This document shows positions 1-11,432 of a stretch of 11,432 nt of DNA, in pieces. Position numbers and translations under genes: made by a program. The stretch covers positions 1 to 11,432 of IMG/VR virus record IMGVR_UViG_3300046009_007268; one strand, given 5' to 3'. This DNA comes from a virus. Below the pieces are notes generated by a model that saw only the letters and a list, made by a program, of their open reading frames with translations, made no database searches and was not told the origin of the DNA. Each line of letters opens with the position of its first letter. Position 1 is the stretch's first letter.

Positions 1-717
1 GGATTTGAAGATTTAGCTGATGAACAAGCTTCAATGAAATGGCAGATGGTTCGTCTTTACGAATACCTCCAAAATCTTCCACTCACAACAATCGTGGTTG
101 ACCATATTGAAGCTGATGATGTTATCGCTTATTTGGCATCCTACTTCAAGGAAAAGGTTTACATCCTATCCAATGACCGAGATTTTCTCCAATTGGTTTC
201 AGAGAAGGTAAACGTTTATGTTCCTACACAGAAAAAAATGTTCAATCAAGAGAATCTGTTGGAACAATATTCCGTGTGGTCTGAAAACTTTACAATCTTC
301 AAGGCATTACTTGGTGATAATTCCGACTCTATTCCAGGAATAAAGGGTATGGGTGAAAAGACAATTCTGAAACATTTTCCTGAACTTGGTGAACGAAAGA
401 AGATTGGATTGGATGAGTTTATACAAATCTGTGAATCATATGATGGTAAGGCAAAGGCAATGTTGGAATTGAAACAATCTATTCCACAATTGAAACGAAA
501 CTATGAGTTGATGCAGTTATTGGATGTGGATATACCCGCATCAATGAAATCAAACATACGAAATATGGTTGATGGTGAAATTTCTAGTATGAATAAGATT
601 CAACTTGATAAATTGTGTTTACAAGATAAACTCCGTGCCGTAATGAATGGTTGGGATGATTGGTTATCCACAAACTTCAAATCGTTGGATTCATATAGAA
701 CTAAAATTGTTGAATAG
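1..717 (+). CDS. 5'-3' exonuclease / flap endonuclease (FEN; T4 RNase H / Pol I 5'-exo family), 5' end cut by the window edge
   Basis: The frame is open from nt 1 (GFEDLADEQAS precedes the tracked Met at 34). IEADDVIA and LSNDRDFLQL match the acidic metal-site motifs. GDNSDSIPGIKGMGEKT matches the helix-3-turn-helix signature of the 53EXO/FEN family. Confidence 0.85.
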   Translation, partial: GFEDLADEQASMKWQMVRLYEYLQNLPLTTIVVDHIEADDVIAYLASYFKEKVYILSNDRDFLQLVSEKVNVYVPTQKKMFNQENLLEQYSVWSENFTIFKALLGDNSDSIPGIKGMGEKTILKHFPELGERKKIGLDEFIQICESYDGKAKAMLELKQSIPQLKRNYELMQLLDVDIPASMKSNIRNMVDGEISSMNKIQLDKLCLQDKLRAVMNGWDDWLSTNFKSLDSYRTKIVE

Positions 718-810: not shown

Positions 811-869
811 TATTTGATATTTATTAGTAGACAAACAAACAAATCAAATAAAAGAAAATGGAGGACTAT

Positions 870-1607
870 ATGGTTATCTACAAGACCACCAATTTGGTGA
901 ACGGAAAACAATACATTGGTAAAGATAAACACAATAACCCAAACTATATTGGTTCTGGAACTTATCTAAAAAAAGCAATCAAAAAATATGGAAAAGAAAA
1001 CTTCAAAAAAGAAATACTTGAAGTGTGTTCTTCAAGTAAAGAACTAATGGAACGTGAGGAATACTGGTTGAATTATTATGATGCCGGCGGAGATCCTAAT
1101 TTTTATAATACCCACAATTATAGTTATGGTTGTCCATCTCATTCTGAAGAAACCAGACGAAAAATGAGTGAATCACGTAAAGGAAAACCGAAAAAGAAAC
1201 ATTCGGAAGAATCTAAACGAAGAATGAGTGAATCCCGACGAGGCGAAAAACACTTTATGTATGGAAAACAGGTGAGCACAAAAACCAGAGAAAAAATAAG
1301 ACAATCTCTTATAGGGAAGAAATTTTCAGAAGAAAGAAGACAAAATATAAGTAAATCTCATCTTGGACATATTGTGAGTGAAGATACAAAACGAAAATTG
1401 AGTTTACTAAATTCCGGTGAAAATCACCCTCAATTCAAAGGATATATTATTTGTGTAAGTGGCGAATATAAAGGACAACGTAAAACGTCAAAAGAATGGG
1501 TTATATTGTTGAATACTGGTTTCAGTAGTTTATCAACTCATTTATCGGGTAAGGGATACAAAAAAGGTATTCGTGGAAATTTTTTGAAATGGGAACACGA
1601 ACTTTGA
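870..1607 (+). CDS. Free-standing GIY-YIG homing endonuclease with NUMOD3 repeats (Seg / I-TevI-like)
   Basis: N-terminus VIYKTTNLVNGKQYIGK...EREEYWLNYYDA matches the GIY-(10 aa)-YIG module. Five NUMOD3-like repeats follow (SEETRRKMSESRKGK, SEESKRRMSESRRGE, STKTREKIRQSLIGK, SEERRQNISKSHLGH, SEDTKRKLSLLNSGE), then a C-terminal HTH-like tail. GGAGG at 860-864 sits 5 nt before the ATG at 870; an in-frame ATG at 858 is the alternative start. Confidence 0.85.
   Translation: MVIYKTTNLVNGKQYIGKDKHNNPNYIGSGTYLKKAIKKYGKENFKKEILEVCSSSKELMEREEYWLNYYDAGGDPNFYNTHNYSYGCPSHSEETRRKMSESRKGKPKKKHSEESKRRMSESRRGEKHFMYGKQVSTKTREKIRQSLIGKKFSEERRQNISKSHLGHIVSEDTKRKLSLLNSGENHPQFKGYIICVSGEYKGQRKTSKEWVILLNTGFSSLSTHLSGKGYKKGIRGNFLKWEHEL
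1140..1250 (+). repeat. Tandem ~60-nt DNA duplication encoding NUMOD3 modules 1 and 2
   Basis: cattcTgaagaaACCaGacgaaAaatgagtgaatcAcg (from 1140) versus cattcGgaagaaTCTaAacgaaGaatgagtgaatcCcg (from 1200). Aligned by hand at a 60-nt period. Confidence 0.6.
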
Positions 1608-1675: not shown

Positions 1676-3028
1676 ATGCAAGATACACTTTCGGAATACG
1701 GACATACGTTTCAAACAAAAGTTATTTCCTGTCTTATCAGTGATAAGGCGTTCTTGGGACAAGTCAGTGATTTATTAGAACCTGGATACTTTGAATCTCA
1801 ATACAATAACTGGATAGTAGAGAAGATTTTAGATTACCATCGTAAATTCAAATCATCACCGACGGCCGAAGTTTTCAAATCTCTTCTCATTCCAGTTGAA
1901 GATAAACTACTTCGTGCTGGAATTGTAGATAATCTAAAAGAATCATACAAACTACAAAACTCCCCTGACTTGGAATACGTGAAGAATGAAGTCATTGAGT
2001 TCTCCAAAAATCAACGTATGAAGCAAGCAATTCTTACGAGCGTTGATTTGTTGAAATCTGGAAAGTTTGACCAAATCAAAAAAACCGTTGATTCGGCATT
2101 GAAAGCCGGTAGTGATAAAGACATAGGACACATTTTCAAACTTCACATTGAAGAGAGATATAGTGAAGGTGCAAGAACGTGTGTTGCAACTAATTGGGAT
2201 GTAATCAATGATATAATGTCAGGAGGTCTCGCGAACGGAGAGCTAGGCGTGGTCGTTGCTCCTGCCGGTGGTGGTAAGAGTTGGGGTCTAATCAATCTTG
2301 CTGCAAATGCCGTAAAACAGGGAAAAACCGTTATTTACTATACTCTTGAATTGAATGCTTATTATGTTGGTAGACGTATTGATGCGTATCTCACAAAGAT
2401 ACCATTTCAGAATCTCGGAGAAGAACATTCTCGCGAGAGAATCCAAGAAGTGATGGAAGGACTTGAAGGTAATCTCATTATCAAGTATTACCCAACACGA
2501 ACCGCATCAATAACGACTCTGACCTCTCATATTCAAAAATGTATAGATCAGGGACAAAAACCAGATATGATTGTTCTTGATTATGCCGATCTTATCCGTC
2601 CTGCAAAAGCTAGTGATAAAAGATTGGAACTAAATGACATCTATGAAGACCTACGTGGTGTTGCTGGTGAGTATGATATTCCAATTTGGACTGCATCTCA
2701 ATCTTCACGCTCATCCACCGACGACGAAGTAATTGAAGGAAACAAGGTATCTGAATCTTACAATAAAATTATGATTGCGGATTTTGTTATGTCCCTCTCT
2801 CGTAAGTTGAATGATAAGATTGGTGGAACAGGACGATGGCACATTATCAAGAACCGATTCGGCCCTGATGGTATGACATTCCCAAGTAAGATAAATACAA
2901 TGACGGGACATATTGAAATCTTTGAACCTAACTCTGACATCGGTAAATCTGTTTCACAATCTATGACCGGTGAAGGTATGGTAAAGAAAGCTCTTTCACA
3001 AAAGTTCAAAGAACTTGAAGGTTTCTAA
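1676..3028 (+). CDS. DnaB-like replicative DNA helicase (RecA-fold, no primase domain)
   Basis: Walker A GVVVAPAGGGKSWG, Walker B MIVLDYADL, and a downstream IWTASQSSR motif typical of DnaB / T7 gp4-type helicases. The helical N-terminal domain resembles DnaB_N. Confidence 0.85.
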   Translation: MQDTLSEYGHTFQTKVISCLISDKAFLGQVSDLLEPGYFESQYNNWIVEKILDYHRKFKSSPTAEVFKSLLIPVEDKLLRAGIVDNLKESYKLQNSPDLEYVKNEVIEFSKNQRMKQAILTSVDLLKSGKFDQIKKTVDSALKAGSDKDIGHIFKLHIEERYSEGARTCVATNWDVINDIMSGGLANGELGVVVAPAGGGKSWGLINLAANAVKQGKTVIYYTLELNAYYVGRRIDAYLTKIPFQNLGEEHSRERIQEVMEGLEGNLIIKYYPTRTASITTLTSHIQKCIDQGQKPDMIVLDYADLIRPAKASDKRLELNDIYEDLRGVAGEYDIPIWTASQSSRSSTDDEVIEGNKVSESYNKIMIADFVMSLSRKLNDKIGGTGRWHIIKNRFGPDGMTFPSKINTMTGHIEIFEPNSDIGKSVSQSMTGEGMVKKALSQKFKELEGF

Positions 3029-3084
3029 TGTTGGTCTATATTTATATCATATAAACCAAATTATTTTTTTTTTTGGAGTCGAAG

Positions 3085-3438
3085 ATGAAAGACCTAATAC
3101 AAGAAGGCAGAAAGATACAAGAAGCATTCAAGAAGAATGTTGGTGAGAACATCAATGAAGCCACACCAACTGGTGAAGACATGAAGATTATAAAGCAGAT
3201 TGCTGACATAGCTTGGAATAAATGGAAAACAAAAATGCCAAGTGATTTTCACAATACTTATGGTAATTTACCTAGATCAATTTCCAACAAGTTAACTGGC
3301 GATTTTGTTGACGCTATGGATGCTGAAGTACAGAAACTCTCCATGAATAAAAATTATTTCACTAAGGTTTTTGCAAATCAAAAGTCAGTGGAAGATATGG
3401 TACTTCGAGCATATAAGAAGTATGGTAGCATAATCTAA
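3085..3438 (+). CDS. Hypothetical protein
   Basis: ORF with GGAG at 3075-3078, 6 nt before the ATG at 3085 (the track's start at 3073 is a TTG). It is followed by a strong terminator. No family recognised. The N-terminus MKDLIQE weakly resembles the leaders at 7321, 8093, 9511 and 9891. Confidence 0.6.
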   Translation: MKDLIQEGRKIQEAFKKNVGENINEATPTGEDMKIIKQIADIAWNKWKTKMPSDFHNTYGNLPRSISNKLTGDFVDAMDAEVQKLSMNKNYFTKVFANQKSVEDMVLRAYKKYGSII

Positions 3439-3499: not shown

Positions 3500-4222
3500 A
3501 TGTCCTACCTAAATATACCAATCCCACCAATAGACGCAATGGTACGTGGGAATTTCTTACGAGACCAACGGGACTCACACGATAAGAAGTTCCCCTGTAT
3601 CATTTTTGGAATGGCATCAATTCCAGCACAAGCCCCACTCTTTCACTTTGTTATGCAAGACGGTGGACTTTGGTGGAGGATGCCAATACACGCTTTCTCT
3701 TGGAAAGAAGATGCAATAGAACAACCACTTGATGAGTTAGTCTTATGGGACTCATTCTCGTATCACGTTGCAGCAACTCAATTCCCTTATCTCAAAAACA
3801 GGAATATGACATTCATTTCCCGTCGGAGAGAAAAATACAAGGGAAGATACTTGTTCACATTAGATTGGGGTGCATCAACAGATTCAGGTGATACAGACTT
3901 TTTATTCTCTGAATACCCGTCTCAACATAAGTGTGGCCACGTTCTTGCGATGGACAATGGAAACTTTGCGATACAACCAAACAATCGTCTTTTACTCCAC
4001 GACCCTTCATTCACAACAAAAGAAGACGTGGTAATAAACAGAATGTATAATAACACTCTTTGGACTGCTGAAAGAAATCCAAGATGGGTAACTCCTGAAA
4101 CGGATAATATGCAGTATGACCACACCGATTTAGAAGCTGGTGAGTCAAATGAAAAAAGGTCAAAAGAGTATGATGAGAAACTAAATGAAAATACGGATAA
4201 GCCATCTAAACGGAAAGTATGA
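3500..4222 (+). CDS. Hypothetical protein (240 aa) with a charged Lys/Glu-rich C-terminal tail
   Basis: Long ORF with AGGAAA 6 nt upstream of the ATG. It has a Trp/His-rich globular part and a tail EAGESNEKRSKEYDEKLNENTDKPSKRKV. No family recognised by eye. Confidence 0.65.
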   Translation: MSYLNIPIPPIDAMVRGNFLRDQRDSHDKKFPCIIFGMASIPAQAPLFHFVMQDGGLWWRMPIHAFSWKEDAIEQPLDELVLWDSFSYHVAATQFPYLKNRNMTFISRRREKYKGRYLFTLDWGASTDSGDTDFLFSEYPSQHKCGHVLAMDNGNFAIQPNNRLLLHDPSFTTKEDVVINRMYNNTLWTAERNPRWVTPETDNMQYDHTDLEAGESNEKRSKEYDEKLNENTDKPSKRKV

Positions 4223-4760
4223 TAATGAAACAGGTGCAGACCTTTGTGAAGTGTTTGGAACACCCGAAGATGAAACCTACAAAGAACTTTTTGAAAAAGG
4301 ATGGCTACCAACAAAAAACGGAGAATGGTATCAATCCCGTTCTTCTCGTGTAAAGATAGATGAGTTATCAGGAACTCGTCGGTATGAAGTTAGAAAGTTG
4401 AAGGTATCAAATGAAGGTGATTGGGAAAAGATATTTGAAGAAAGTAAGTTTCTTTACCCCGATTACCAAGAAGATTATATCAGAACTTGCCTTTCATTCA
4501 ACCACGAGATTTATTACTTTGATGACTCTGTGTTTGCGGTTCTAAATTGGTTTGATGATATTCCATTCTTCTCAACCGTAGTCGGTGGTAGAATGAAGAA
4601 AAATGGAATAACTCCCCTAACTTGTTATTACTTCATCCATAAACTACTTGGACATTCGTACCCTTATTTGTATATTAGTGAATGGTATGAACAGTTCAAT
4701 TTCAAGGCAAACTATCCTAACTTTGAATGGTGGGATGGGGAAAAATGGGTAAAAAAATAA
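4185..4760 (+). CDS. Putative ATE/Bpt-like aminoacyl-tRNA-protein transferase (remote, motif-level)
   Basis: The ATG follows an in-frame TAA at 4182-4184 and overlaps the upstream ORF by 38 nt. KGWLPTKNGEWYQSRSSRV..RRYEVRK, FAVLNWFDDIPFFSTVVG and YPYLYISEWYEQFNFKANYPNFEWWDGEKW resemble my recollection of the ATE_C/Bpt motifs (GFRRSG..Y.P...R, aVav.D...dglSavY and YLGYwI...KM.YK..y.P.E....W). Confidence 0.45.
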   Translation: MKIRISHLNGKYDNETGADLCEVFGTPEDETYKELFEKGWLPTKNGEWYQSRSSRVKIDELSGTRRYEVRKLKVSNEGDWEKIFEESKFLYPDYQEDYIRTCLSFNHEIYYFDDSVFAVLNWFDDIPFFSTVVGGRMKKNGITPLTCYYFIHKLLGHSYPYLYISEWYEQFNFKANYPNFEWWDGEKWVKK

Positions 4761-4868: not shown

Positions 4869-6722
4869 ATGGATATTAGCAACCGAATTCTTTCGGATAT
4901 TACTGTATTCCAAAAATACGCGAAATACTTACCCGAACTGAATCGGAGAGAGACGTGGGAAGAGTTGGTGACAAGAAATAAAGAAATGCACCAAAATAAA
5001 TACCCACAACTTCATGATGAAATTGAATCTGCGTATAAGTTTGTCTACGATAAGAAGGTTCTTCCGTCCATGCGATCACTTCAATTTGGTGGTAAGCCAA
5101 TTGAAATCAATCCATCAAGAATCTATAACTGTTCTTATTTACCGATTGACGACTGGCGCGCCTTTGGTGAAGTAATGTTTCTTCTTCTCGGTGGAACTGG
5201 TGTAGGTTTCTCCGTTCAAAAACATCACGTTGAAAAGCTACCACCAATTCACAAACCAAAGAAAGACCGCGAACGTAGATTCCTCGTCGGTGATTCTATT
5301 GAAGGTTGGGCTGATGCAATCAAAGCAGTTGTAAAGTCATACTTTTTCAGCGGTTCATCACTTCGTTTTGACTATTCAGACATTCGTCCAAAGGGAACTC
5401 GTCTCATCACATCAGGTGGTAAGGCACCAGGACCAGAACCGCTTCGTATTTGTATTGAAAAGATTCGATCTATCCTTGAACTAAAGCACGATGGTGAAAA
5501 TCTAACTCCATTAGAAGTCCACGATATTATCTGTCATATTGCAGATGCGGTTCTTGCCGGTGGTATTCGTCGTGCTGCTCTTATCTCTCTTTTCTCTGCT
5601 GATGATAACGAAATGATTTCGTGTAAGTTTGGTGCATGGTGGGAATTGAATCCTCAACGTGGACGTGCAAATAACTCAGCAGTATTACTTCGCAGTAAGA
5701 TTACCGAAGAGTTCTTCAAGGAGTTGTGGAAGAAGATTGAACTTTCAAACGCAGGTGAACCAGGAATTTACTTCTCAAACGATAAGGATTGGGGAACAAA
5801 TCCATGTTGTGAAATTGCACTTCGTCCATTCCAAATGTGTAATCTGTGTGAAGTAAACGCATCAGATGTGGTGGACCAACAAGATTTAGAAGACCGAGTT
5901 CGTGCTGCCGCATTTATCGGAACACTCCAAGCATCATACACCGAGTTCCACTACCTTCGTCCAATTTGGCAAAGAACTTGTGAGAAGGATGCGCTTCTTG
6001 GAATCGGTATGACTGGTATTGGTTCGGGCGTTGTTCAGAAGTTGGATGTCAAAACAAGTGCAAAAATTGCAAAGGAAGAAAACGAAAGAGTTGCAAATCT
6101 TCTCGGTATCAATAAAGCCGCAAGAGTAACTTGTATCAAACCATCAGGAACAACATCATGTGTTCTCGGTACGAGTTCAGGTATTCATGCATGGCACAAT
6201 GACTACTATATCCGTAGAATCCGTATTGGTAAGAATGAGGCACTATACAACTATCTTATCCAAAATCACCCACAATTGGTTGAAGATGAATACTTCCGTC
6301 CACATGATACCGCCGTCGTTGGTGTCCCACAAAAGGCACCAGACCATGCTATTATGAGAACTGAATCTCCAATTCAACTTCTTGAACGTGTGAAGTGGTT
6401 TAGCCAACAATGGATAAAGCCAGGTCATCGTTCGGGTATGAATACTCACAACATTTCGGCAACGGTATCTATCCGTGAACATGAATGGGATGCAGTAGGT
6501 AATTGGATGTGGGAAAATAAGGATTTTTACAACGGTCTTTCAGTCCTCAATTACGATGGGGGCAGTTATAAACAAAGTCCCTTCGAGGATATTACAAAAG
6601 AAGAATACGAAAGATTGATGTCAACACTCCATGAAATTGATTTAAAGAACGTTGTGGAGTATGATGACAACACAGAATTGGCACAAGAAGCTGCGTGTGC
6701 AGGCGGCGCGTGTCTAATATAA
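4869..6722 (+). CDS. nrdJ: Ribonucleotide reductase, class II (adenosylcobalamin-dependent, monomeric RTPR-like)
   Basis: 617-aa ORF with GGAG 7 nt upstream. It carries the active-site-like motifs IYNCSY, GGTGVGFS, RGRANNSAV and TNPCCEIAL (NPC.E thiyl-Cys loop). The C-terminal redox pair CAGGACLI resembles the C-x-G-G-A-C tail of L. leichmannii-type RTPR. No beta subunit gene is adjacent. Confidence 0.85.
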   Translation: MDISNRILSDITVFQKYAKYLPELNRRETWEELVTRNKEMHQNKYPQLHDEIESAYKFVYDKKVLPSMRSLQFGGKPIEINPSRIYNCSYLPIDDWRAFGEVMFLLLGGTGVGFSVQKHHVEKLPPIHKPKKDRERRFLVGDSIEGWADAIKAVVKSYFFSGSSLRFDYSDIRPKGTRLITSGGKAPGPEPLRICIEKIRSILELKHDGENLTPLEVHDIICHIADAVLAGGIRRAALISLFSADDNEMISCKFGAWWELNPQRGRANNSAVLLRSKITEEFFKELWKKIELSNAGEPGIYFSNDKDWGTNPCCEIALRPFQMCNLCEVNASDVVDQQDLEDRVRAAAFIGTLQASYTEFHYLRPIWQRTCEKDALLGIGMTGIGSGVVQKLDVKTSAKIAKEENERVANLLGINKAARVTCIKPSGTTSCVLGTSSGIHAWHNDYYIRRIRIGKNEALYNYLIQNHPQLVEDEYFRPHDTAVVGVPQKAPDHAIMRTESPIQLLERVKWFSQQWIKPGHRSGMNTHNISATVSIREHEWDAVGNWMWENKDFYNGLSVLNYDGGSYKQSPFEDITKEEYERLMSTLHEIDLKNVVEYDDNTELAQEAACAGGACLI

Positions 6723-6786
6723 CGGTGGTATCTATATTTATTTAACAGGGAACTAATCCCGACTATTATACAAACAGGAGAACGTT

Positions 6787-6963
6787 ATGACAAAGCAAGA
6801 ACTATACGAACAAATTACAAATCTGTTCAATGAGTTTACCGTCGGACACAATTCAAAGTTCAAGAAAGGTGCAGGAGACGCTCGTAAGGCGTTAGGTGCA
6901 ATCAAGAAGTTGATCACACCTTACAACAAGGCATCTGTGTCTGAAGGCAAAGAGTCCAAGTAA
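6787..6963 (+). CDS. Histone H1/Hc1-like small DNA-binding protein (58 aa)
   Basis: This ORF is below the track's length cutoff. AGGAG lies 6 nt upstream of the ATG. MTKQELYEQITNLFNEF...KKGAGDARKALGAIKKLITPYNKASVSEGKESK matches the length and the KG..A.ARKA....KL....K.S pattern of ~60-aa bacterial histone-H1-like (Hc1 N-domain) proteins, as recalled. Confidence 0.55.
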   Translation: MTKQELYEQITNLFNEFTVGHNSKFKKGAGDARKALGAIKKLITPYNKASVSEGKESK

Positions 6964-6968
6964 ATCAA

Positions 6969-7169
6969 ATGAAAGAGGAAGATTATTACATAAACGAAAA
7001 CGGGAAGGTGGTATTCACAGAAGAGTACCACCTTTGCCGTTCATTTTGTTGCGGGTCGGGATGTCTTCACTGCCCGTATGAACCAAAACATACAAAGGGG
7101 GTAACGAATGTTGCGATTAGAGAACGAGGTAGATCCGAAGATAACACAACCAACACATCTGAAGGATAA
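6969..7169 (+). CDS. DUF5522-like cysteine-rich small protein
   Basis: EEDYYINENGKVVFTEEYHLCRSFCCGSGCLHCPY matches the recalled DUF5522 signature (DFYY.E.G..VFTE.YHL.RG.CC..GC.HCPY). The C-terminal 20 codons overlap the next ORF. Confidence 0.55.
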   Translation: MKEEDYYINENGKVVFTEEYHLCRSFCCGSGCLHCPYEPKHTKGVTNVAIRERGRSEDNTTNTSEG

Positions 7170-7317
7170 AAAGATTATTGTTAGACGTGGAGATGAGATA
7201 TTTATTTCCAACGTTTTTATCACAGGTGGTACGTGTTTCGTATATTACTATGGGATGTTTATGGAAATCTTTGAAATGGATGGTTGGACGAAATTACCCG
7301 TCGTTTCATATTTATAG
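7108..7317 (+). CDS. Hypothetical small protein
   Basis: AGGGGG at 7094-7099 lies 8 nt upstream of the ATG. Its last codons (PVVSYL-stop) belong to the junction sequence that is duplicated at 8058-8089. No family recognised. It overlaps the 6969 ORF by 62 nt. Confidence 0.4.
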   Translation: MLRLENEVDPKITQPTHLKDKKIIVRRGDEIFISNVFITGGTCFVYYYGMFMEIFEMDGWTKLPVVSYL

Positions 7318-7350
7318 GTAATGATAAAACTCAAAGACATATTATCTGAA
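7286..7350 (+). repeat. Junction repeat, copy 1 (end of upstream ORF, ATG and leader codons)
   Basis: About 57 of 65 nt match 8058-8122 by hand alignment, with a 29-nt perfect core GTTTCATATTTATAGGTAATGATAAAACT at 7303-7331 matching 8075-8103. Confidence 0.85.
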
Positions 7351-8055
7351 ACAGACACAGACCCGAAAAAGGCGTTTGGTGATATTGTGTTTGGTGATAT
7401 AAGTCAAGATGATTTCTTTAAAAAACTCGTTAAGTTACAGGGAAAAACTGGTTCTGAAAAGAATACGAAAATAGAAAAACAGATATTGTCATACATATTA
7501 CAATGGGTACGCACTCCTGATGGAACTATTTCAAACAATTTGTATAAAAATAAAGACTTGTTGAAAAATGCAAAAACTAAATTTCCATCTATATTTAAAC
7601 CAGAAACCCCGAATGGTACAGAAGTCTATCGAGGTTTACAAGATATTTCGAAGAATATTATTTCTCCTCTAAGAGAAAAATCTGACTATAATGATTATAC
7701 TAAATTAAAAATCGGAAAAGAAGTATTTTATAGATATGATAAACCAATATCGTATAAACCACACCGAGATGTTCAAAGTTGGACGTCTAATATAAATGTA
7801 TCTAAAAGATTTGGAGACCATGGTATACTTATTTCAGAACAAAATGATGAGTATTTTTTCAATCAAAAGGTAATGAATTATTTGTTTTCATTCACCAGTG
7901 GTAACGGAAAAGAAAACGAAATACTTCATTTTGGAAAAAAGTATTCCAAACCTGTATTCATAGCGGTAAGTTCAGAACTATTTTGGGAGAACATTATGGA
8001 CAGATTGCCTAACAGATTGTCCAACTACATTGAACCGGACGATGATGACTTATAG
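7321..8055 (+). CDS. Putative R-S-E type ADP-ribosyltransferase (T4 Alt/Mod-like, C3/iota-like motif set) with an N-terminal leader
   Basis: EVYRG (R104), QSWTSN (S153/T155/S156, STS-like) and KENEIL (E198-x-E200). The spacing is about 49 and 45 aa, comparable to R-S-E toxins. The N-terminus is MIKLKDILSE. Confidence 0.6.
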   Translation: MIKLKDILSETDTDPKKAFGDIVFGDISQDDFFKKLVKLQGKTGSEKNTKIEKQILSYILQWVRTPDGTISNNLYKNKDLLKNAKTKFPSIFKPETPNGTEVYRGLQDISKNIISPLREKSDYNDYTKLKIGKEVFYRYDKPISYKPHRDVQSWTSNINVSKRFGDHGILISEQNDEYFFNQKVMNYLFSFTSGNGKENEILHFGKKYSKPVFIAVSSELFWENIMDRLPNRLSNYIEPDDDDL

Positions 8056-8057
8056 AC

Positions 8058-8122
8058 GGACGATATTCCCCGTAGTTTCATATTTATAGGTAATGATAAA
8101 ACTAAAACACATATTAACAGAG
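8058..8122 (+). repeat. Junction repeat, copy 2
   Basis: See copy 1. It includes a relic reading ...TIFPVVSYL-stop (8060-8089) that parallels ...TKLPVVSYL-stop at 7288-7317, followed by ATG and MIKLKHILTE. Confidence 0.85.
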
Positions 8123-9091
8123 GCACTATCAGATATAGTCTGGCACTTCACATCACCCCAAGCTGCTAAGAAGATAATAGAGCAAAACAAGTTTGAGTTG
8201 AGCATAGTGAGTGGTGCAGATATATCAAAGTTTGGTGGTAATAAACAATACTACCTTTCAACCGCTCGCCAAAAGTGGGGTGGTTATGGTAAATCATATG
8301 ATTGCCGTCTTGAGTTGGACGGGAGAAAGTTATCACAACGATATAAGGGTGGTGCGATAGATTACTGGCAGATGGGACCACAAGGTACGGAATACGAAGA
8401 CCGTTTGTTTTCCAATGAACCAACAATTCCTAATGCAAAGAATTACATCAAACGTGTGGACTTGTTCCTAAATGCCTTTGTATACAGGAGTAATATGACT
8501 CAATTGACGGCTGTAATGGATGCCTGCCTAAAAGCAAACATCCAATGTTTTCTATTCAGAAATGAAAAGAAGTTTCAATTGGGTAGAGACGGAGAACTTG
8601 TGACAAAAGAAATAGCGGATTCTTTGAGACAACCAATTGACCCGAATGAAAGTCCATATGTTTCCATGCCACCTAATCCTGAAAGATTAGATAGGTTGGT
8701 TTATATCGCACAAGTCGTCGGTATATCAAAGGAAGAACTAAATACTATCTTCATGTCAAATCAAACAGCTGAGAAAGATTTCAACAGCAGAATGTTACAG
8801 ATGGAACCGGATGATCGTGGGAAGTATGGAACATATAAGGATTACATAGAATCTGGTTGGAAAGAATATGAAAGTAAGTTATGGAATATGAGACTGACTT
8901 TTGGAGGGATGGATGCTAAATCTGTAATAGATTCCGAGATACATAACGCAAAAAGAAAGATGGGGTCTATTGCCCGTGATATTTTGATTCGTATTTATCA
9001 AGAAGGTCGTAAGAATAAAATCACTCCGGATAAGATGATTCCGTTCATTATCCAAAAGGCAAAGGAAAACTCCGAACAAGAGAATGGATGA
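8093..9091 (+). CDS. Leader-bearing hypothetical protein; the N-terminal domain has an H-Y-E-like (PARP/DarT-type ART-like) triad
   Basis: 332-aa ORF. The leader MIKLKHILTE is followed by ALSDIVWHFTS (compare AFGDIVFGDIS in the 7321 gene). IVWHFTSPQAAKKIIEQNKF (H18), KQYYLSTARQK (Y53/Y54, S56) and TEYEDRLFS (E100/E102) follow the order and spacing of H-Y-E ART motifs. No family was recognised for the C-terminal ~200 aa. Confidence 0.65.
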   Translation: MIKLKHILTEALSDIVWHFTSPQAAKKIIEQNKFELSIVSGADISKFGGNKQYYLSTARQKWGGYGKSYDCRLELDGRKLSQRYKGGAIDYWQMGPQGTEYEDRLFSNEPTIPNAKNYIKRVDLFLNAFVYRSNMTQLTAVMDACLKANIQCFLFRNEKKFQLGRDGELVTKEIADSLRQPIDPNESPYVSMPPNPERLDRLVYIAQVVGISKEELNTIFMSNQTAEKDFNSRMLQMEPDDRGKYGTYKDYIESGWKEYESKLWNMRLTFGGMDAKSVIDSEIHNAKRKMGSIARDILIRIYQEGRKNKITPDKMIPFIIQKAKENSEQENG

Positions 9092-9191
9092 AAAAGAAAT
9101 TCTACATTTTGGTAAAAAATACTCCAACCCGATAACGATTGCAGTTGAATTCGCTACATATACTGAATATGTAAAGTTCTATACTAAATAA
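9084..9191 (+). pseudogene. Orphaned ART C-terminal fragment (ExE strand), out of frame with the 8093 gene
   Basis: The +1 frame reads MDEKEILHFGKKYSNPITIAVEFATYTEYVKFYTK. It aligns with residues 197-216 of the 7321 protein (KENEILHFGKKYSKPVFIAV), with 15 of 20 residues identical from the first E. Many differences are synonymous third-position changes (ata/att, ctt/cta, gga/ggt, aag/aaa, tat/tac, cct/ccg, gcg/gca, gta/gtt). Confidence 0.55.
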
Positions 9192-9230
9192 CAGATTGCC
9201 CACCACAAGGTAAATACATGGGAAGTTCGG

Positions 9231-9458
9231 ATGGCAATAGTAAAAAGACAAAAACTACGAGACAACCTCGCAAAAACTTGTTTGGTTTTAGGAACATTCT
9301 TCAATCCACTGGGCTTCGATGCAGCATTTTCCTTCGTGATGAAATTGACAGGAAGCTACTGGATTACAGACGTTATCTTCTATGGGGTTGCGCTGTTATT
9401 TTTTGGATTTTATTTCTTACTTTCCCGTAAGAAAACAAAACCTGAATCATATTTATAG
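9231..9458 (+). CDS. Small membrane protein with two predicted TM segments
   Basis: GGAAG lies 5 nt upstream of the ATG. Hydrophobic stretches CLVLGTFFNPLGFDAAFSFV and ITDVIFYGVALLFFGFYFLL are followed by the basic tail SRKKTK. It ends in SYL-stop, encoded by the TCATATTTATAG motif. Confidence 0.55.
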   Translation: MAIVKRQKLRDNLAKTCLVLGTFFNPLGFDAAFSFVMKLTGSYWITDVIFYGVALLFFGFYFLLSRKKTKPESYL

Positions 9459-9486
9459 AATATAACCATAGTATTTTTTGGAATAT

Positions 9487-9873
9487 ATGATGGAACTGAA
9501 TAAACAACGAATGATGAAACTTGCTGGTCTTTTGACTGAATCTATCAATGAGGCAGTAAAGGAAGTAAATTTTGGTAAAGATCCAAAGAAGTTTGCCAAG
9601 GAATATGATGGAAATAACATGATGTGGAAAGACACAACAATGTTCAGTAAGAAAGATGCAATGAACATTATGAAACAAGCTCTTCCTGATGGTTATAATG
9701 AATTCACTGCTGAATTGATTGACAAATTACCAGCAGATGCAAAGATTCAACTTGGTCGTGAATATAGTGTTTGTCTTTATGTAAAGACGAATACAAAACC
9801 AAGTAAAGCTTCTTTGAAGGCGGATGAACTTGATGAAGTAGAACCAGGTCTATACCGAATTTGGTGGGACTAA
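9487..9873 (+). CDS. Hypothetical protein with a leader-like N-terminus (..RMMKLAGLLTE)
   Basis: The first ATG in the ORF is at 9487 (the track start at 9478 is a TTG). Alternative ATGs at 9511 and 9514 would give MMKLAGLLTES or MKLAGLLTES. No family recognised. Confidence 0.6.
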   Translation: MMELNKQRMMKLAGLLTESINEAVKEVNFGKDPKKFAKEYDGNNMMWKDTTMFSKKDAMNIMKQALPDGYNEFTAELIDKLPADAKIQLGREYSVCLYVKTNTKPSKASLKADELDEVEPGLYRIWWD

Positions 9874-9890
9874 TACAATCGGAGCATGAA

Positions 9891-10238
9891 ATGAAATTAT
9901 CGTCAAGAAAACAATTACTTAGCGAGGCATCTCAAACACTTCAATCACTTCGTGAAGCTGAAGAAAAGATTAGCCAAAAAGTTGAAAACTCTGTAAAGAG
10001 AATGAGAGAAGCCACAAAGAAGGCAAATCGTTCAGAGGCTTTATTTGAACTCGCTAAACTTCTAGCAGAACAAAAGTATTCAAAGATACTTGACCACACT
10101 GCTGAAATCAGAAAGATTGCTGGAACTATGCCTTATGGTATTCAACAGTATGAAAATGAATTGATGACAGAGATGTTAGCCAAGGCAAAACAAAGATTCA
10201 ATGTGAAAGAATACGCCGCTATTTATTCGGCACTTTAA
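9891..10238 (+). CDS. Hypothetical helical protein with a leader-like N-terminus (MKLSSRKQLLSE)
   Basis: GGAG at 9881-9884 lies 6 nt before the ATG at 9891 (the track start at 9861 is a TTG that overlaps the previous gene). It is followed by a strong terminator. Confidence 0.65.
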   Translation: MKLSSRKQLLSEASQTLQSLREAEEKISQKVENSVKRMREATKKANRSEALFELAKLLAEQKYSKILDHTAEIRKIAGTMPYGIQQYENELMTEMLAKAKQRFNVKEYAAIYSAL

Positions 10239-10257
10239 GAAAATTACACACCAGTTC

Positions 10258-10297
10258 AAAAAGTCTCACATTTTCTTGGTGTGAGACTTTTTTATTT
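10258..10297 (+). terminator. Rho-independent terminator
   Basis: AAAAAGTCTCACA (10258-10270) pairs with TGTGAGACTTTTT (10280-10292), 13 bp with a 9-nt loop, followed by a T-run and ATTT. Confidence 0.8.
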
Positions 10298-10324
10298 GGA
10301 AATGTCAGATTTTTTTCGTATACT
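10296..10324 (+). promoter_or_regulatory. Candidate promoter TTGGAA-N17-TATACT
   Basis: TTGGAA at 10296-10301, a 17-nt spacer, TATACT at 10319-10324. It sits directly after a terminator and 29 nt before the ATG at 10353. Confidence 0.45.
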
Positions 10325-10352
10325 TGTATTCAATCAATTACAAGTTAATAAA

Positions 10353-10652
10353 ATGACACCGAGAAAACAAAAGAAAATTGACGAATTTCAAATGAAAGCA
10401 CTTGACGAAATGTTCCGTCGTGTTGGATTTGAAGGATATGACGAAGAGTTCGCTCAACAACCTTATTGGTTTACTAAACGTGAATGGACTCTTGAAGAAG
10501 ATGTTGATTTTACAAAGTGGTTCATTGACGAATATGTAAAGACATTCCGTGAACCAAAGTATATTGCAAAGGAAGTTGCAGGTTGGTTTGTATTTAACTA
10601 CGGTTGGAAAACAAAGAAGATGTATGATAAAGTAGATAATTTTATTCGGTAA
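10353..10652 (+). CDS. Hypothetical protein (99 aa)
   Basis: The track ORF begins at 10281, inside the terminator/promoter region. The first ATG downstream of the promoter is at 10353 (MTPRKQKKIDEF...). The protein is Trp/acidic-rich. No family recognised. Confidence 0.6.
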   Translation: MTPRKQKKIDEFQMKALDEMFRRVGFEGYDEEFAQQPYWFTKREWTLEEDVDFTKWFIDEYVKTFREPKYIAKEVAGWFVFNYGWKTKKMYDKVDNFIR

Positions 10653-10663
10653 GAAAAATAAAT

Positions 10664-10692
10664 TTGGAATTGTGGAATCTTTTTAGTATATT
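10664..10692 (+). promoter_or_regulatory. Candidate promoter TTGGAA-N17-TATATT
   Basis: TTGGAA at 10664-10669, a 17-nt spacer, TATATT at 10687-10692. GTATATTGTA is identical to the 10-mer at 1631-1640. Confidence 0.4.
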
Positions 10693-10713
10693 GTACATAC
10701 TTATTGATATAGA

Positions 10714-10890
10714 ATGGATTTAGACATAACTTTTAGGACAGGAAATTCGATGAACAACTCACTACATACATGGCAATCATATCCGGCGATGACACAACAA
10801 GTCACTCGCAAAGGAGCCATTTTTTGTGGTATCACATTTAATAGTGAGTATCTCCCAACATCAAAATCCTGTAAGTTGTCTATGACCTAA
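10714..10890 (+). CDS. Questionable 58-codon ORF (the region may instead be a non-coding transcript)
   Basis: An open ATG...TAA frame, verified codon by codon. It has no Shine-Dalgarno sequence and no recognisable protein features. It lies between candidate promoter 10664-10692 and terminator 10911-10950. Confidence 0.25.
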   Translation: MDLDITFRTGNSMNNSLHTWQSYPAMTQQVTRKGAIFCGITFNSEYLPTSKSCKLSMT

Positions 10891-10910
10891 TCAAAAAGAC
10901 ACACCAGTTC

Positions 10911-10950
10911 AGAAGGACTTACAGGATAAAACTTGTAAGTCCTTTTTGTT
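10911..10950 (+). terminator. Rho-independent terminator
   Basis: AGAAGGACTTACAGG (10911-10925) pairs with CTTGTAAGTCCTTTT (10932-10946), about 13-15 bp including G-U pairs, with a 6-nt loop ATAAAA. The T5 run is followed by GTT. Confidence 0.75.
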
Positions 10951-10963
10951 TATGTGGATAACT

Positions 10964-10994
10964 TTGTAAGTCCTTTGATTTCAAAGACTTACGG
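10964..10994 (+). other. Stable hairpin reusing the TGTAAGTCCTTT unit (no T-run)
   Basis: TTGTAAGTCCTTTGA (10964-10978) pairs with TCAAAGACTTACGG (10981-10994). There is one bulged C and a very small loop. Confidence 0.5.
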
Positions 10995-10999
10995 TGAAA

Positions 11000-11030
11000 A
11001 TCCAAATTATGACAAAAAATTAATTTGGAT
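11000..11030 (+). other. Perfect 10-bp inverted repeat hairpin
   Basis: ATCCAAATTA (11000-11009) and TAATTTGGAT (11021-11030) are separated by 11 nt. Confidence 0.5.
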
Positions 11031-11059
11031 ATATCGGAAAAATTCCATAGGTTTGTGTC

Positions 11060-11075
11060 TCCTTCTTCGGAAGGA
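11060..11075 (+). other. UUCG-tetraloop hairpin just upstream of the tRNA cluster
   Basis: TCCTTC-TTCG-GAAGGA: a 6-bp stem with a TTCG loop. Confidence 0.5.
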
Positions 11076-11101
11076 CGTTCATTGAAAACTTATTACGCCA
11101 A

Positions 11102-11185
11102 GCCGCGTCGGTGCAGTTAGAGAGGCACATCGGTCTGTAAAACCGATTCTATTCAGATGAGTAGGTGCGAATCCTACACGCGGCA
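11102..11185 (+). tRNA. tRNA-Tyr (GUA), class II with a long variable arm
   Basis: Acceptor GCCGCGT/ACGCGGC with discriminator A. D stem GTGC/GCAC. Anticodon stem TCGGT/ACCGA with loop CTGTAAA. 14-nt variable arm. T arm GTAGG-TGCGAAT-CCTAC; the G at T-loop position 55 is unusual. Confidence 0.8.
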
Positions 11186-11194
11186 CAAAATTAT

Positions 11195-11269
11195 GGGCTG
11201 GTAGTGCTAACGGGAACACACGGGTTTTGCAAACCTGAATTGAGGGTTCGATTCCCTCCTGGTCCACCA
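11195..11269 (+). tRNA. tRNA-Ala (UGC), with encoded CCA
   Basis: Acceptor GGGCTGG/CTGGTCC includes a G3:U70 wobble and discriminator A73, both Ala identity elements. Anticodon stem CGGGT/ACCTG with loop TTTGCAA. T arm GAGGG-TTCGATT-CCCTC. CCA is at 11267-11269. Confidence 0.8.
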
Positions 11270-11273
11270 TAAT

Positions 11274-11345
11274 GCCGAGATAGCTCAGTTGGTAGAGCGC
11301 CAGTTTGAAGCACTGGTAGCCGTGGTTCGATTCCACGTTTCGGCA
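11274..11345 (+). tRNA. tRNA-Phe (GAA)
   Basis: Acceptor GCCGAGA/TTTCGGC. D arm GCTC-AGTTGGTA-GAGC. Anticodon stem CCAGT/ACTGG with loop TTGAAGC. T arm CGTGG-TTCGATT-CCACG. Discriminator A. Confidence 0.85.
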
Positions 11346-11352
11346 CAAACAT

Positions 11353-11425
11353 CGCGGGGTAGGGAAGTGGCTAACCCGTCGGGCTCATAACCCGAAGATC
11401 GTGAGTTCGAATCTCACCTCCGCAA
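11353..11425 (+). tRNA. Initiator tRNA-fMet (CAU)
   Basis: The 5' end CGCGGGG and the anticodon arm TCGGGCTCATAACCCGA are identical to E. coli tRNA-fMet as recalled. There is a C1:A72 mismatch and three consecutive G:C pairs at the base of the anticodon stem. T arm GTGAG-TTCGAAT-CTCAC. CCA is not encoded. Confidence 0.8.
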
Positions 11426-11432
11426 CAATCAT

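Follow-up and report, generated by a model that had tools for sequence, protein, structure and literature searches.

The viral DNA considered here is the whole 11,432-nt stretch of IMG/VR record IMGVR_UViG_3300046009_007268 (hereafter the window), and all of its confident genes lie on the plus strand. Four neighbouring genes, which we call G1 (7321-8055), G2 (8093-9091), G3 (9487-9873) and G4 (9891-10238), and a small gene nearer the start of the window (3085-3438) open with short leader peptides. From the DNA alone, an original prediction had read these leaders as propeptides comparable to the capsid-targeting sequence (CTS) of phage T4, borne by proteins that would be packaged in the virion and delivered with the DNA. 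We refer to whatever follows a leader as its cargo and to the class 1 leader as the tag. The leaders are:

7321-7350, plus strand: leader class 1 on G1, MIKLKDILSE, followed by T, with a predicted cut after E10 (translation, homologues and model).
8093-8122, plus strand: leader class 1 on G2, MIKLKHILTE, followed by A (translation, DNA repeat and G2 family).
9487-9540, plus strand: leader class 2 on G3, MMELNKQRMMKLAGLLTE, followed by S (translation and alignment of G3 cargos).
9891-9926, plus strand: leader class 3 on G4, MKLSSRKQLLSE, followed by A (translation and pattern scans).
3085-3159, plus strand: leader class 4 on the small gene (3085-3438), MKDLIQEGRKIQEAFKKNVGENINE, which begins MKDLIQE, followed by G (translation and pattern scan).

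All five N-termini stand where they had first been placed (7321, 8093, 9487/9511, 9891 and 3085), and the leader ends read from the translations, ILSE, ILTE, LLTE, LLSE and INE, all fit a motif of the (L/I)-x-E type. The regular expression of the original prediction matches four of the 16 window proteins, solely at their N-termini (residues 1 to 3), and none of 20,000 residue shuffles of the window proteins gave two or more matches. The view that the five N-termini are variants of one motif had to be given up, as the leaders of the five genes fall into four separate classes. For G3, the conservation of K-Q-R ahead of MMKLAGLLTE puts the start of the gene probably at 9487 or 9490, which makes its leader about 18 residues long and not 10; the shared helical region of the G4 leader may reach about 25 residues.

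The leader is kept in homologues from related phages. In an alignment of 40 G1-family proteins, reaching down to about 30% identity, M1, I2, K3, L4, K5, I7, L8 and E10 are invariant or nearly so, and the leader columns are conserved as strongly as the best columns of the core; in 40 G2-family representatives, which are 23-40% identical to G2, M1 is invariant and E10 at least 90% conserved. AlphaFold2 models the leader of both proteins as a low-confidence terminal helix, with a mean predicted local distance difference test score (pLDDT) over residues 1-10 of 54 for G1 and 65 for G2, against 91 and 89.5 for the whole models. The closest cultured relative of the window is Microcystis phage Mel-JY01 (190 kb, complete), the helicase of which is 61.7% identical and the region syntenic. 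Across its whole genome a looser regular expression matches four of 1,700 Met starts, and three of these belong to paralogues of G2 that begin MIKLKSLLQE, MIKLKSLLKE and MIKLMSLVTE and sit directly 3' of the reductase gene, the same place as in the window. Leader-like starts are also seen in Mel-JY01 on a 639-aa cytidylyltransferase-like protein upstream of terminase (MGKLINILLSE; L008 11243-13162) and on a 266-aa protein (MGILKQLLKE; L009 96164-96964), and its capsid protein has the loosely tag-like start MDIKNILTS.

Using the pattern M-I-K-[LF]-K-x-I-[LF]-x-E, back-translated to DNA, we scanned the viral contigs of IMG/VR, where the matches listed span 119 stretches, and ran the same DNA pattern as a control on 596 Gb of bacterial and archaeal genomes. 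At least 132 viral matches were obtained; among the matches listed, 126 of 132 open an open reading frame (ORF) of at least 45 aa, and in-frame ATG codons upstream of these starts were almost never seen. By contrast, 24 of 120 control matches look like ORF starts (Fisher p = 3e-38 for the two shares), the rest being mostly out-of-frame or internal chance matches; among the control ORF starts, one contig is Mel-JY01-like phage DNA and a few others carry cargo families of the viral set. Once the tag was removed, the 121 unique proteins fell into at least 75 cargo clusters with no blastp similarity between clusters. Motifs of M23 peptidase, NUDIX, HD, P-loop plus protein kinase, GNAT acetyltransferase and DnaQ-like exonuclease were recognised among the cargos, by eye only, and in several contigs two or three tagged genes are adjacent. 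Aligned by hhalign, the G1 family and a tagged Alt-like family (described below with the head genes) correspond over residues 1-12 only.

Synonymous codons at I2, K3, L4 (TTA and CTN) and L8 follow background usage, which argues that selection acts on the amino acids of the tag. Codons 5-7 are biased towards AAA-GAC-ATA, with AAA at codon 5 in 94% (75% in the background) and ATA at codon 7 in 87% (42% in the background). Tag position 9 and the residue that follows Glu10 vary freely, and hydrophilic residues occupy positions 12-15. Dozens of unrelated cargo families have in common the tag alone, which is found strictly at the N-terminus and is conserved as protein sequence.

Leaders and cargos change partners by cassette exchange. 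In different phages, one and the same G3 cargo domain is aligned behind three alternative leaders, MxELNKQRMMKLAGLLTE as in the window, MKDLIQEGR..ILxE of the 3085 type and MKLSSREQLLKEA.. of the G4 type. The G3-type leader occurs on at least three cargos among relatives, the G4-type pattern was found at the start of 14 ORFs from 7 cargo clusters, and 12 of 12 matches to the 3085-type pattern open an ORF, with 8 cargo clusters represented; one relative matches the first 28 residues of the 3085 gene and then diverges. Each leader class holds at least one [ILV]-x-E motif. Matches to the short form MKLAGLLxE were mostly due to chance (about 7 of 27 are ORF starts), so this leader is rarer and better defined in its 18-aa form.

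Around G1 and G2 the exchange has left its junctions in the DNA of the window itself, given here with the ORF that follows the stub:

7286-7349, plus strand: copy 1 of a 64-nt direct repeat, made of the end of the upstream 69-aa ORF (..PVVSYL and stop), GGTA and the first 10 codons.
8058-8121, plus strand: second copy of the 64-nt repeat, forming the G2 cassette's 5' junction, with a frameshifted relic of the end of the 69-aa ORF.
9084-9191, plus strand: a 35-aa stub, MDEKEILHFGKKYSNPITIAVEFATYTEYVKFYTK and stop, the 3' end of a displaced P0038-type G1 paralogue, overlapping the G2 stop codon.
9231-9458, plus strand: a 75-aa membrane ORF, lying with the stub between G2 and G3.

The two repeat copies are 89% identical and cover 35 nt upstream together with the first ten codons of G1 and G2, so that the leaders of these two genes are not independent events; taken alone the pair could be a local duplication, a doubt that the homologues remove. 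The stub matches the C-terminus of P0038 exactly, and its DNA is 100% identical to that of an intact gene in contig L140, with a sharp breakpoint at AATGGATGA. Since the 5' junction of G2 copies that of G1 and a paralogue stub lies at the G2 stop codon, the G2 cargo replaced the interior of a tagged paralogue, and this replacement kept the tag and the 3' end of the displaced gene. That the leader might serve as a recombination handle as well as an address had been suggested at the outset, and the G2 cassette junctions, together with the swapped leaders of the G3 cargo, support it. The string TCATATTTATAG (..SYL and stop) is found at 7317, 8092 and 9458, where it forms the end of the 69-aa ORF and of the 75-aa membrane ORF and returns before G2 as a relic; upstream gene ends seem to travel along with the downstream leader junction.

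The tag is linked to heads of the T4 type. Among 101 randomly chosen large ORFs adjoining tagged genes, the top Pfam families were Portal_T4, the T4-type terminase (Terminase_6N) and Gp23. Mel-JY01 encodes Portal_T4, Peptidase_S77 (the gp21 family) and Gp23 according to Pfam, and Mel-type head proteins occur in 39 of 114 tagged loci among the matches listed. The interval from terL to gp23 contains at least 17 tagged genes, most of which stand between protease and scaffold. Contigs L018 and L028 each hold a Peptidase_S77 gene and a tagged gene, and in L018, where the S77 protease is encoded on the same contig, about 1 kb separates a G1-family member from gp23, the nearest link of the window's genome to a head module. 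A gp21-type prohead protease, on which the original prediction depended, was found in relatives and tag carriers, Mel-JY01 and these two contigs among them; because the contigs of the window are without head genes, we infer its own S77 protease from relatives.

The leader is likewise present on genes of the head module. The gene directly 3' of the protease (the family of Mel 21704) starts MIKLKDILKE in six contigs and elsewhere has other [IV]-x-E-rich N-termini. The tagged family that adjoins it gave a tblastn match to alt of Acinetobacter phage Ac42 (29% identity, E=3e-4). This Alt-like family, which is encoded between protease and scaffold and is absent from the window, has R / S-T / ExE columns and starts MIKLK(T/N/S)ILLE in five contigs. 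Its Mel-JY01 orthologue starts MYEYVEYILE, aligned with MIKLKTILLE, M1 and E10 being invariant and the alignment resuming right after Glu10; MYEYVEYILE in turn has M1, Y4, E6, an aromatic residue at 7, I8 and E10 in common with the T4 CTS, MKTYQEFIAE (PMC8442874). Homologues of the major capsid protein keep a site QL[ILV]xE, followed by A or S, just upstream of the start of the Pfam Gp23 match (residue 71), and scaffold homologues begin M..LLKE, followed by A, and are full of hydrophobic-x-E sites.

In T4, gp21 cleaves after Glu in L/I-x-E (PMC9026906), and the first ten residues of IPIII suffice for capsid targeting (PMC9026906, PMC3012670), residues 4 and 7 serving targeting and residues 8 and 10 processing (PMC9026906). 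T-even internal proteins are diverse and only their CTS is conserved (PMC9026906, PMC3012670), and Alt is a packaged head-core protein which gp21 cuts at both termini (PMC9026906). The tag parallels this mutational map: it comprises ten N-terminal residues ending in hydrophobic-x-Glu, is fixed at positions 4 and 7 (both hydrophobic) and at 8 and 10, is free at 9, and is the only element common to diverse proteins. Both systems also have the gp20/gp21/gp23 head module and variable, recombination-prone loci. They differ in that the carriers here are uncultured aquatic T4-type phages, Mel-JY01 being the sole cultured relative found, and not T-even coliphages; in that at least 75 cargo clusters, many of them enzyme-like, contrast with a few small basic proteins in T4; and in that one genome here has at least four leader classes, with many tagged genes inside the head module and a function that is predicted. 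Many head-internal proteins of the giant phages phiKZ and SPN3US, inner-body and ejection proteins among them, have propeptides, which a diverged homologue of gp21 cleaves off after Glu at a short motif (PMC9026906, PMC5694885), but those propeptides are long and varied, whereas here a conserved decapeptide accompanies canonical Pfam Gp23, Portal_T4 and S77 proteins.

We consider it likely that the N-termini of G1-G4 and of the 3085 gene are detachable propeptides resembling the T4 CTS, which the S77 protease removes. We infer that the cargos are physically packaged, cut after the Glu and injected into the host: the leader, a short amphipathic helix at the N-terminus, would bind the scaffolding core of the assembling prohead, thereby enclosing the attached cargo; the serine protease of the gp21 family (Peptidase_S77) would then cut after the Glu of [I/L]-[L/I]-x-E, which is residue 10 in MIKLKDILxE; and the mature cargo would stay in the head and enter the host together with the DNA. 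The main part of the original prediction, the T4-style propeptide, stands, with the S77 and T4-type head genes, the placement in the head module, the tagged Alt homologue, MYEYVEYILE, the pattern of conservation and the cassette exchange in G2 and G3 in its favour; the Alt-like nature of G1 was not confirmed, and the single motif had to be replaced by four classes. A mechanism of this class is already known from T4. The sequence of the tag, its spread across a T4-type clade with hardly any cultured member, the range of its cargos, the coexistence of several leader classes and the visible exchange of cassettes appear to be undescribed, as literature searches (for MIKLK strings, Mel-JY01 and recent capsid-targeting work) found no earlier description of the tag.

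A wider claim, to which we would give even chances, is that MIKLKDILxE and its sister leaders are portable address tags for the full capsid-loaded, co-injected protein set of a large, almost uncultured aquatic T4-type clade, spanning at least 75 cargo families (Alt-like, DarT/Tpt1-like and M23-peptidase-like and, by eye, NUDIX, HD, kinase, GNAT and exonuclease), and at the same time recombination handles that turn any gene into an injected effector. Phage proteins that are injected with the DNA act before phage gene expression, which makes them prime candidates for anti-defence and host takeover, and except in a few model phages virion proteomics is the only way to find them. If the tag does direct proteins to the capsid, the injected proteins of hundreds of uncultured phages could be listed by simply searching sequences; the tag would also illustrate how effectors are recruited by swapping cargo behind a fixed address, and would give a second means, unrelated to the first, of tagging foreign proteins so that they are loaded into T4-type capsids.

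Several points weigh against the propeptide. No head genes are found in the window or in its near-identical contigs (each up to 16 kb), and the enrichment of the tag near head genes is about 2-3 fold, on short loci. The IMG/VR tag matches listed are a non-random sample. The bias at codons 5-7 could reflect an extra constraint at the RNA level or a recent spread. MIKLKDILxE has little identity with the T4 CTS, the two sharing only M1 and E10, an acidic residue at 6 and a hydrophobic one at both 7 and 8. In the G2 family a mere 2-4 residues separate the leader-like N-terminus from the first conserved strand, so that there it could belong to the domain itself. Finally, literature searches found no publication on any tag carrier, Mel-JY01 included.

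Other explanations of the shared N-terminus have to be set beside the propeptide. The leader could be a translation-start cassette, the A/U-rich first ten codons of which have spread for expression in hosts that make little use of Shine-Dalgarno sequences, possibly on leaderless mRNAs, with a peptide that is itself functionless. Its codons are indeed very rich in A and T, AAA is over-used at codon 5 and ATA at codon 7, an upstream element described below, TATTTATA, lies 2-5 nt before the ATG in the window and in several relatives, and 5' flanking DNA is common to G1 and G2. However, the use of both TTA and CTN for Leu4 and Leu8 and the background usage at I2 and K3 indicate that it is the amino acid which is kept, E10 is near-invariant while residues 6, 9 and 11 vary, and the upstream regions differ widely among carriers. 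We find such a cassette improbable, the more so as it would leave unexplained the placement in the head module, the equivalence of MYEYVEYILE on the Alt homologue and the presence of [ILV]-x-E in all the alternative leaders. Ordinary homology, by which G1-G4 would be diverged paralogues and the leader the first helix of one domain family, seems to us very improbable: at least 75 cargo clusters are without detectable similarity beyond the tag, the profile-profile alignment spans 12 residues only, the G1 and G2 models have no common significant structural match (none in the PDB for G1, Tpt1 and DarT for G2) and the G3 cargo is found with three different leaders. This has to be set against the duplicated 5' junction of G1 and G2, the stub of a G1 paralogue 3' of G2, and a G2 family in which leader-like N-termini are common and the leader directly adjoins the first conserved strand, all of which speak for homology.

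The leader might also be an address or control tag for some other purpose, acting through a phage chaperone, the membrane or another assembly, or holding toxic enzymes inactive until it is cut, with neither storage in the capsid nor injection. Many cargos do look potentially toxic (DarT/Tpt1-like, Alt-like and M23 peptidase, with nuclease and kinase motifs by eye), a removable N-terminal peptide is a common restraint on enzymes of this sort, and the presence of the cargos in virions is a prediction. We nevertheless think it unlikely, as the only protease specificity that fits is that of the head protease, which acts inside proheads in T4 (PMC9026906), tagged genes cluster among the protease, scaffold and capsid genes, and the tagged Alt homologue corresponds to a packaged T4 protein (PMC9026906).

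The cargos of the four neighbouring genes are as follows:

7351-8055, plus strand: G1 cargo, 234 aa after the tag, with invariant YRG / QSW / ExEILHFG columns (alignment).
8123-9091, plus strand: G2 cargo, a domain of about 170 aa at the N-terminus and then a helical C-terminal domain (AlphaFold2 and Foldseek).
9541-9873, plus strand: G3 cargo domain, KEVNFGKDPK...RIWWD (alignment).
9927-10238, plus strand: G4 cargo, a small helical protein (translation).

Compared with Pfam and PHROGs, G1 to G4 gave nothing above threshold. In the G1 family, R104-G105, Q152-S153-W154 and E198-x-E200 are invariant or nearly so and fall on predicted strands (101-106, 151-155 and 200-204). Against the PDB, G1 had no profile sequence match and no Foldseek match below E=0.28; against BFVD its best Foldseek matches were uncharacterised phage proteins, an 'ADP-ribosyltransferase exoenzyme' coming only at rank 10 (E=0.22). 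The proposal that G1 is an Alt-like ADP-ribosyltransferase of the R-S-E type was therefore not confirmed, Pfam, PHROG, PDB, Foldseek and hhalign being negative despite the invariant R / S / ExE columns. The likeness to T4 Alt lies in the tagged head-module family with similarity to alt; that family is outside the window, and G1 is without similarity to Alt in profile or fold. Three G1 homologues (P0008, P0014 and P0045) have a C-terminal extension that is leucine-rich-repeat-like (NxLTTLxGAP), and a separate tagged family (L089, L106, L167 and L184) is made mainly of repeats of this type.

The AlphaFold2 model of G2 (pLDDT 89.5) matched Tpt1 (7yw4) in Foldseek with E=1.9e-3, probability 1.0 and a target-normalised TM-score of 0.68, and DarT entries with probabilities of 0.92-0.99 and TM-scores of about 0.4 (7omy, 7yk3 and 7omw at 0.93-0.99). 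As modelled, the N-terminal domain of G2 has a DarT/Tpt1-like fold, one of the ADP-ribosyltransferase superfamily. DarT is a DNA ADP-ribosyltransferase and Tpt1/KptA a tRNA 2'-phosphotransferase, both NAD+-dependent. They are the sole strong Foldseek matches of this domain, and G2 has an H-x-T motif near its start; it differs from them in lacking a match at the sequence level and in having the extra helical C-terminal domain and the tag. The family of this domain counts 1,501 representatives, which are unannotated, and H18, T20, S56, R59, E100, E102 and R104 are invariant in 40 of them. No Pfam match was found for G2, nor for nine relatives in the region of the domain.

Upstream of the leader-bearing genes a short element recurs:

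7309-7316, plus strand: TATTTATA element, also at 3039-3046, 8081-8088 and 9450-9457, all four copies on this strand only and each upstream of a leader-bearing gene.

It ends 4 nt before the ATG of G1 and of G2, a spacing that would imply nearly leaderless transcripts, and in Mel-JY01 the portal, tail-tube and other genes have it about 31-39 nt ahead of them. The idea of a late promoter peculiar to leader genes was rejected, since the element is upstream of 19 of 126 leader genes and of 111 of 1,052 other ORFs (p=0.13). In relatives the element is strongly strand-biased, its reverse complement being upstream of 15 of the 1,052 ORFs against 111 for the forward orientation; these counts mark it as a general upstream element of the phages, possibly a promoter. 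Sigma-70-type promoters are not enriched in 6600-11100 (16 found, 15.7 expected). A promoter-like TTGGAA-N17-TATAnT overlaps TTTCGTATAnTTGTA at 1607-1640, 10290-10328 and 10662-10695, where the copies precede the helicase gene, the gene at 10353 and the region at 10714, respectively. Hairpins with T-runs occur at 10240-10295 and 10893-10946, each after the same ACACACCAGTTCA box, and only the second was called terminator-like.

The remaining features of the window are:

34-717, plus strand: 3' part of a 5'-3' exonuclease gene.
858-1607, plus strand: GIY-YIG/NUMOD3 homing endonuclease, between the exonuclease and helicase genes.
1676-3028, plus strand: DnaB-type helicase.
3085-3438, plus strand: the small leader-bearing gene.
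3500-4222 and 4185-4760, plus strand: two conserved genes.
4869-6722, plus strand: class II ribonucleotide reductase, followed by three small ORFs.
10353-10652, plus strand: a further gene, 3' of G4.
11102-11426: four tRNA genes (Tyr, Ala, Phe and Met).

The locus was found in many metagenome contigs, each of at most 16 kb. Among GenBank phages, megablast with the whole window gave no match and neither did tblastn with G1 and the two largest cargo clusters. The phage group of the window is essentially uncultured, and the helicase query alone led to Mel-JY01. A tagged ORF is also encoded on a 72-kb contig (L180, NHHP01000001.1) of a metagenome-assembled genome labelled Candidatus Pelagibacter sp. 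TMED166, together with homologues, at about 40% identity, of the primase-like protein and the large AAA-domain protein of Mel-JY01. The DNA of this contig is that of a phage, whether it was binned wrongly or came from an infected cell, and so gives no more than a weak hint as to hosts.

The slot between the exonuclease and helicase genes is an insertion hotspot: the two genes abut in contig L003, without the endonuclease between them, and in the relatives L296, L299 and L302 the slot is occupied by a tagged gene of the G1 family. Internal repeats of 37-38 nt in the endonuclease gene (858-1607) correspond to NUMOD3 units. A Cys-rich DUF5522 ORF (6969-7169) overlaps the 69-aa ORF (7108-7317) by 62 nt in another frame, and both are called as genes in related contigs. 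In longer contigs the locus runs on into an Rnl1-type RNA ligase and a polynucleotide kinase-phosphatase (L001 9322-11272), which make up, with the tRNA cluster, a T4-like RNA-repair set adjoining the DarT/Tpt1-like G2.

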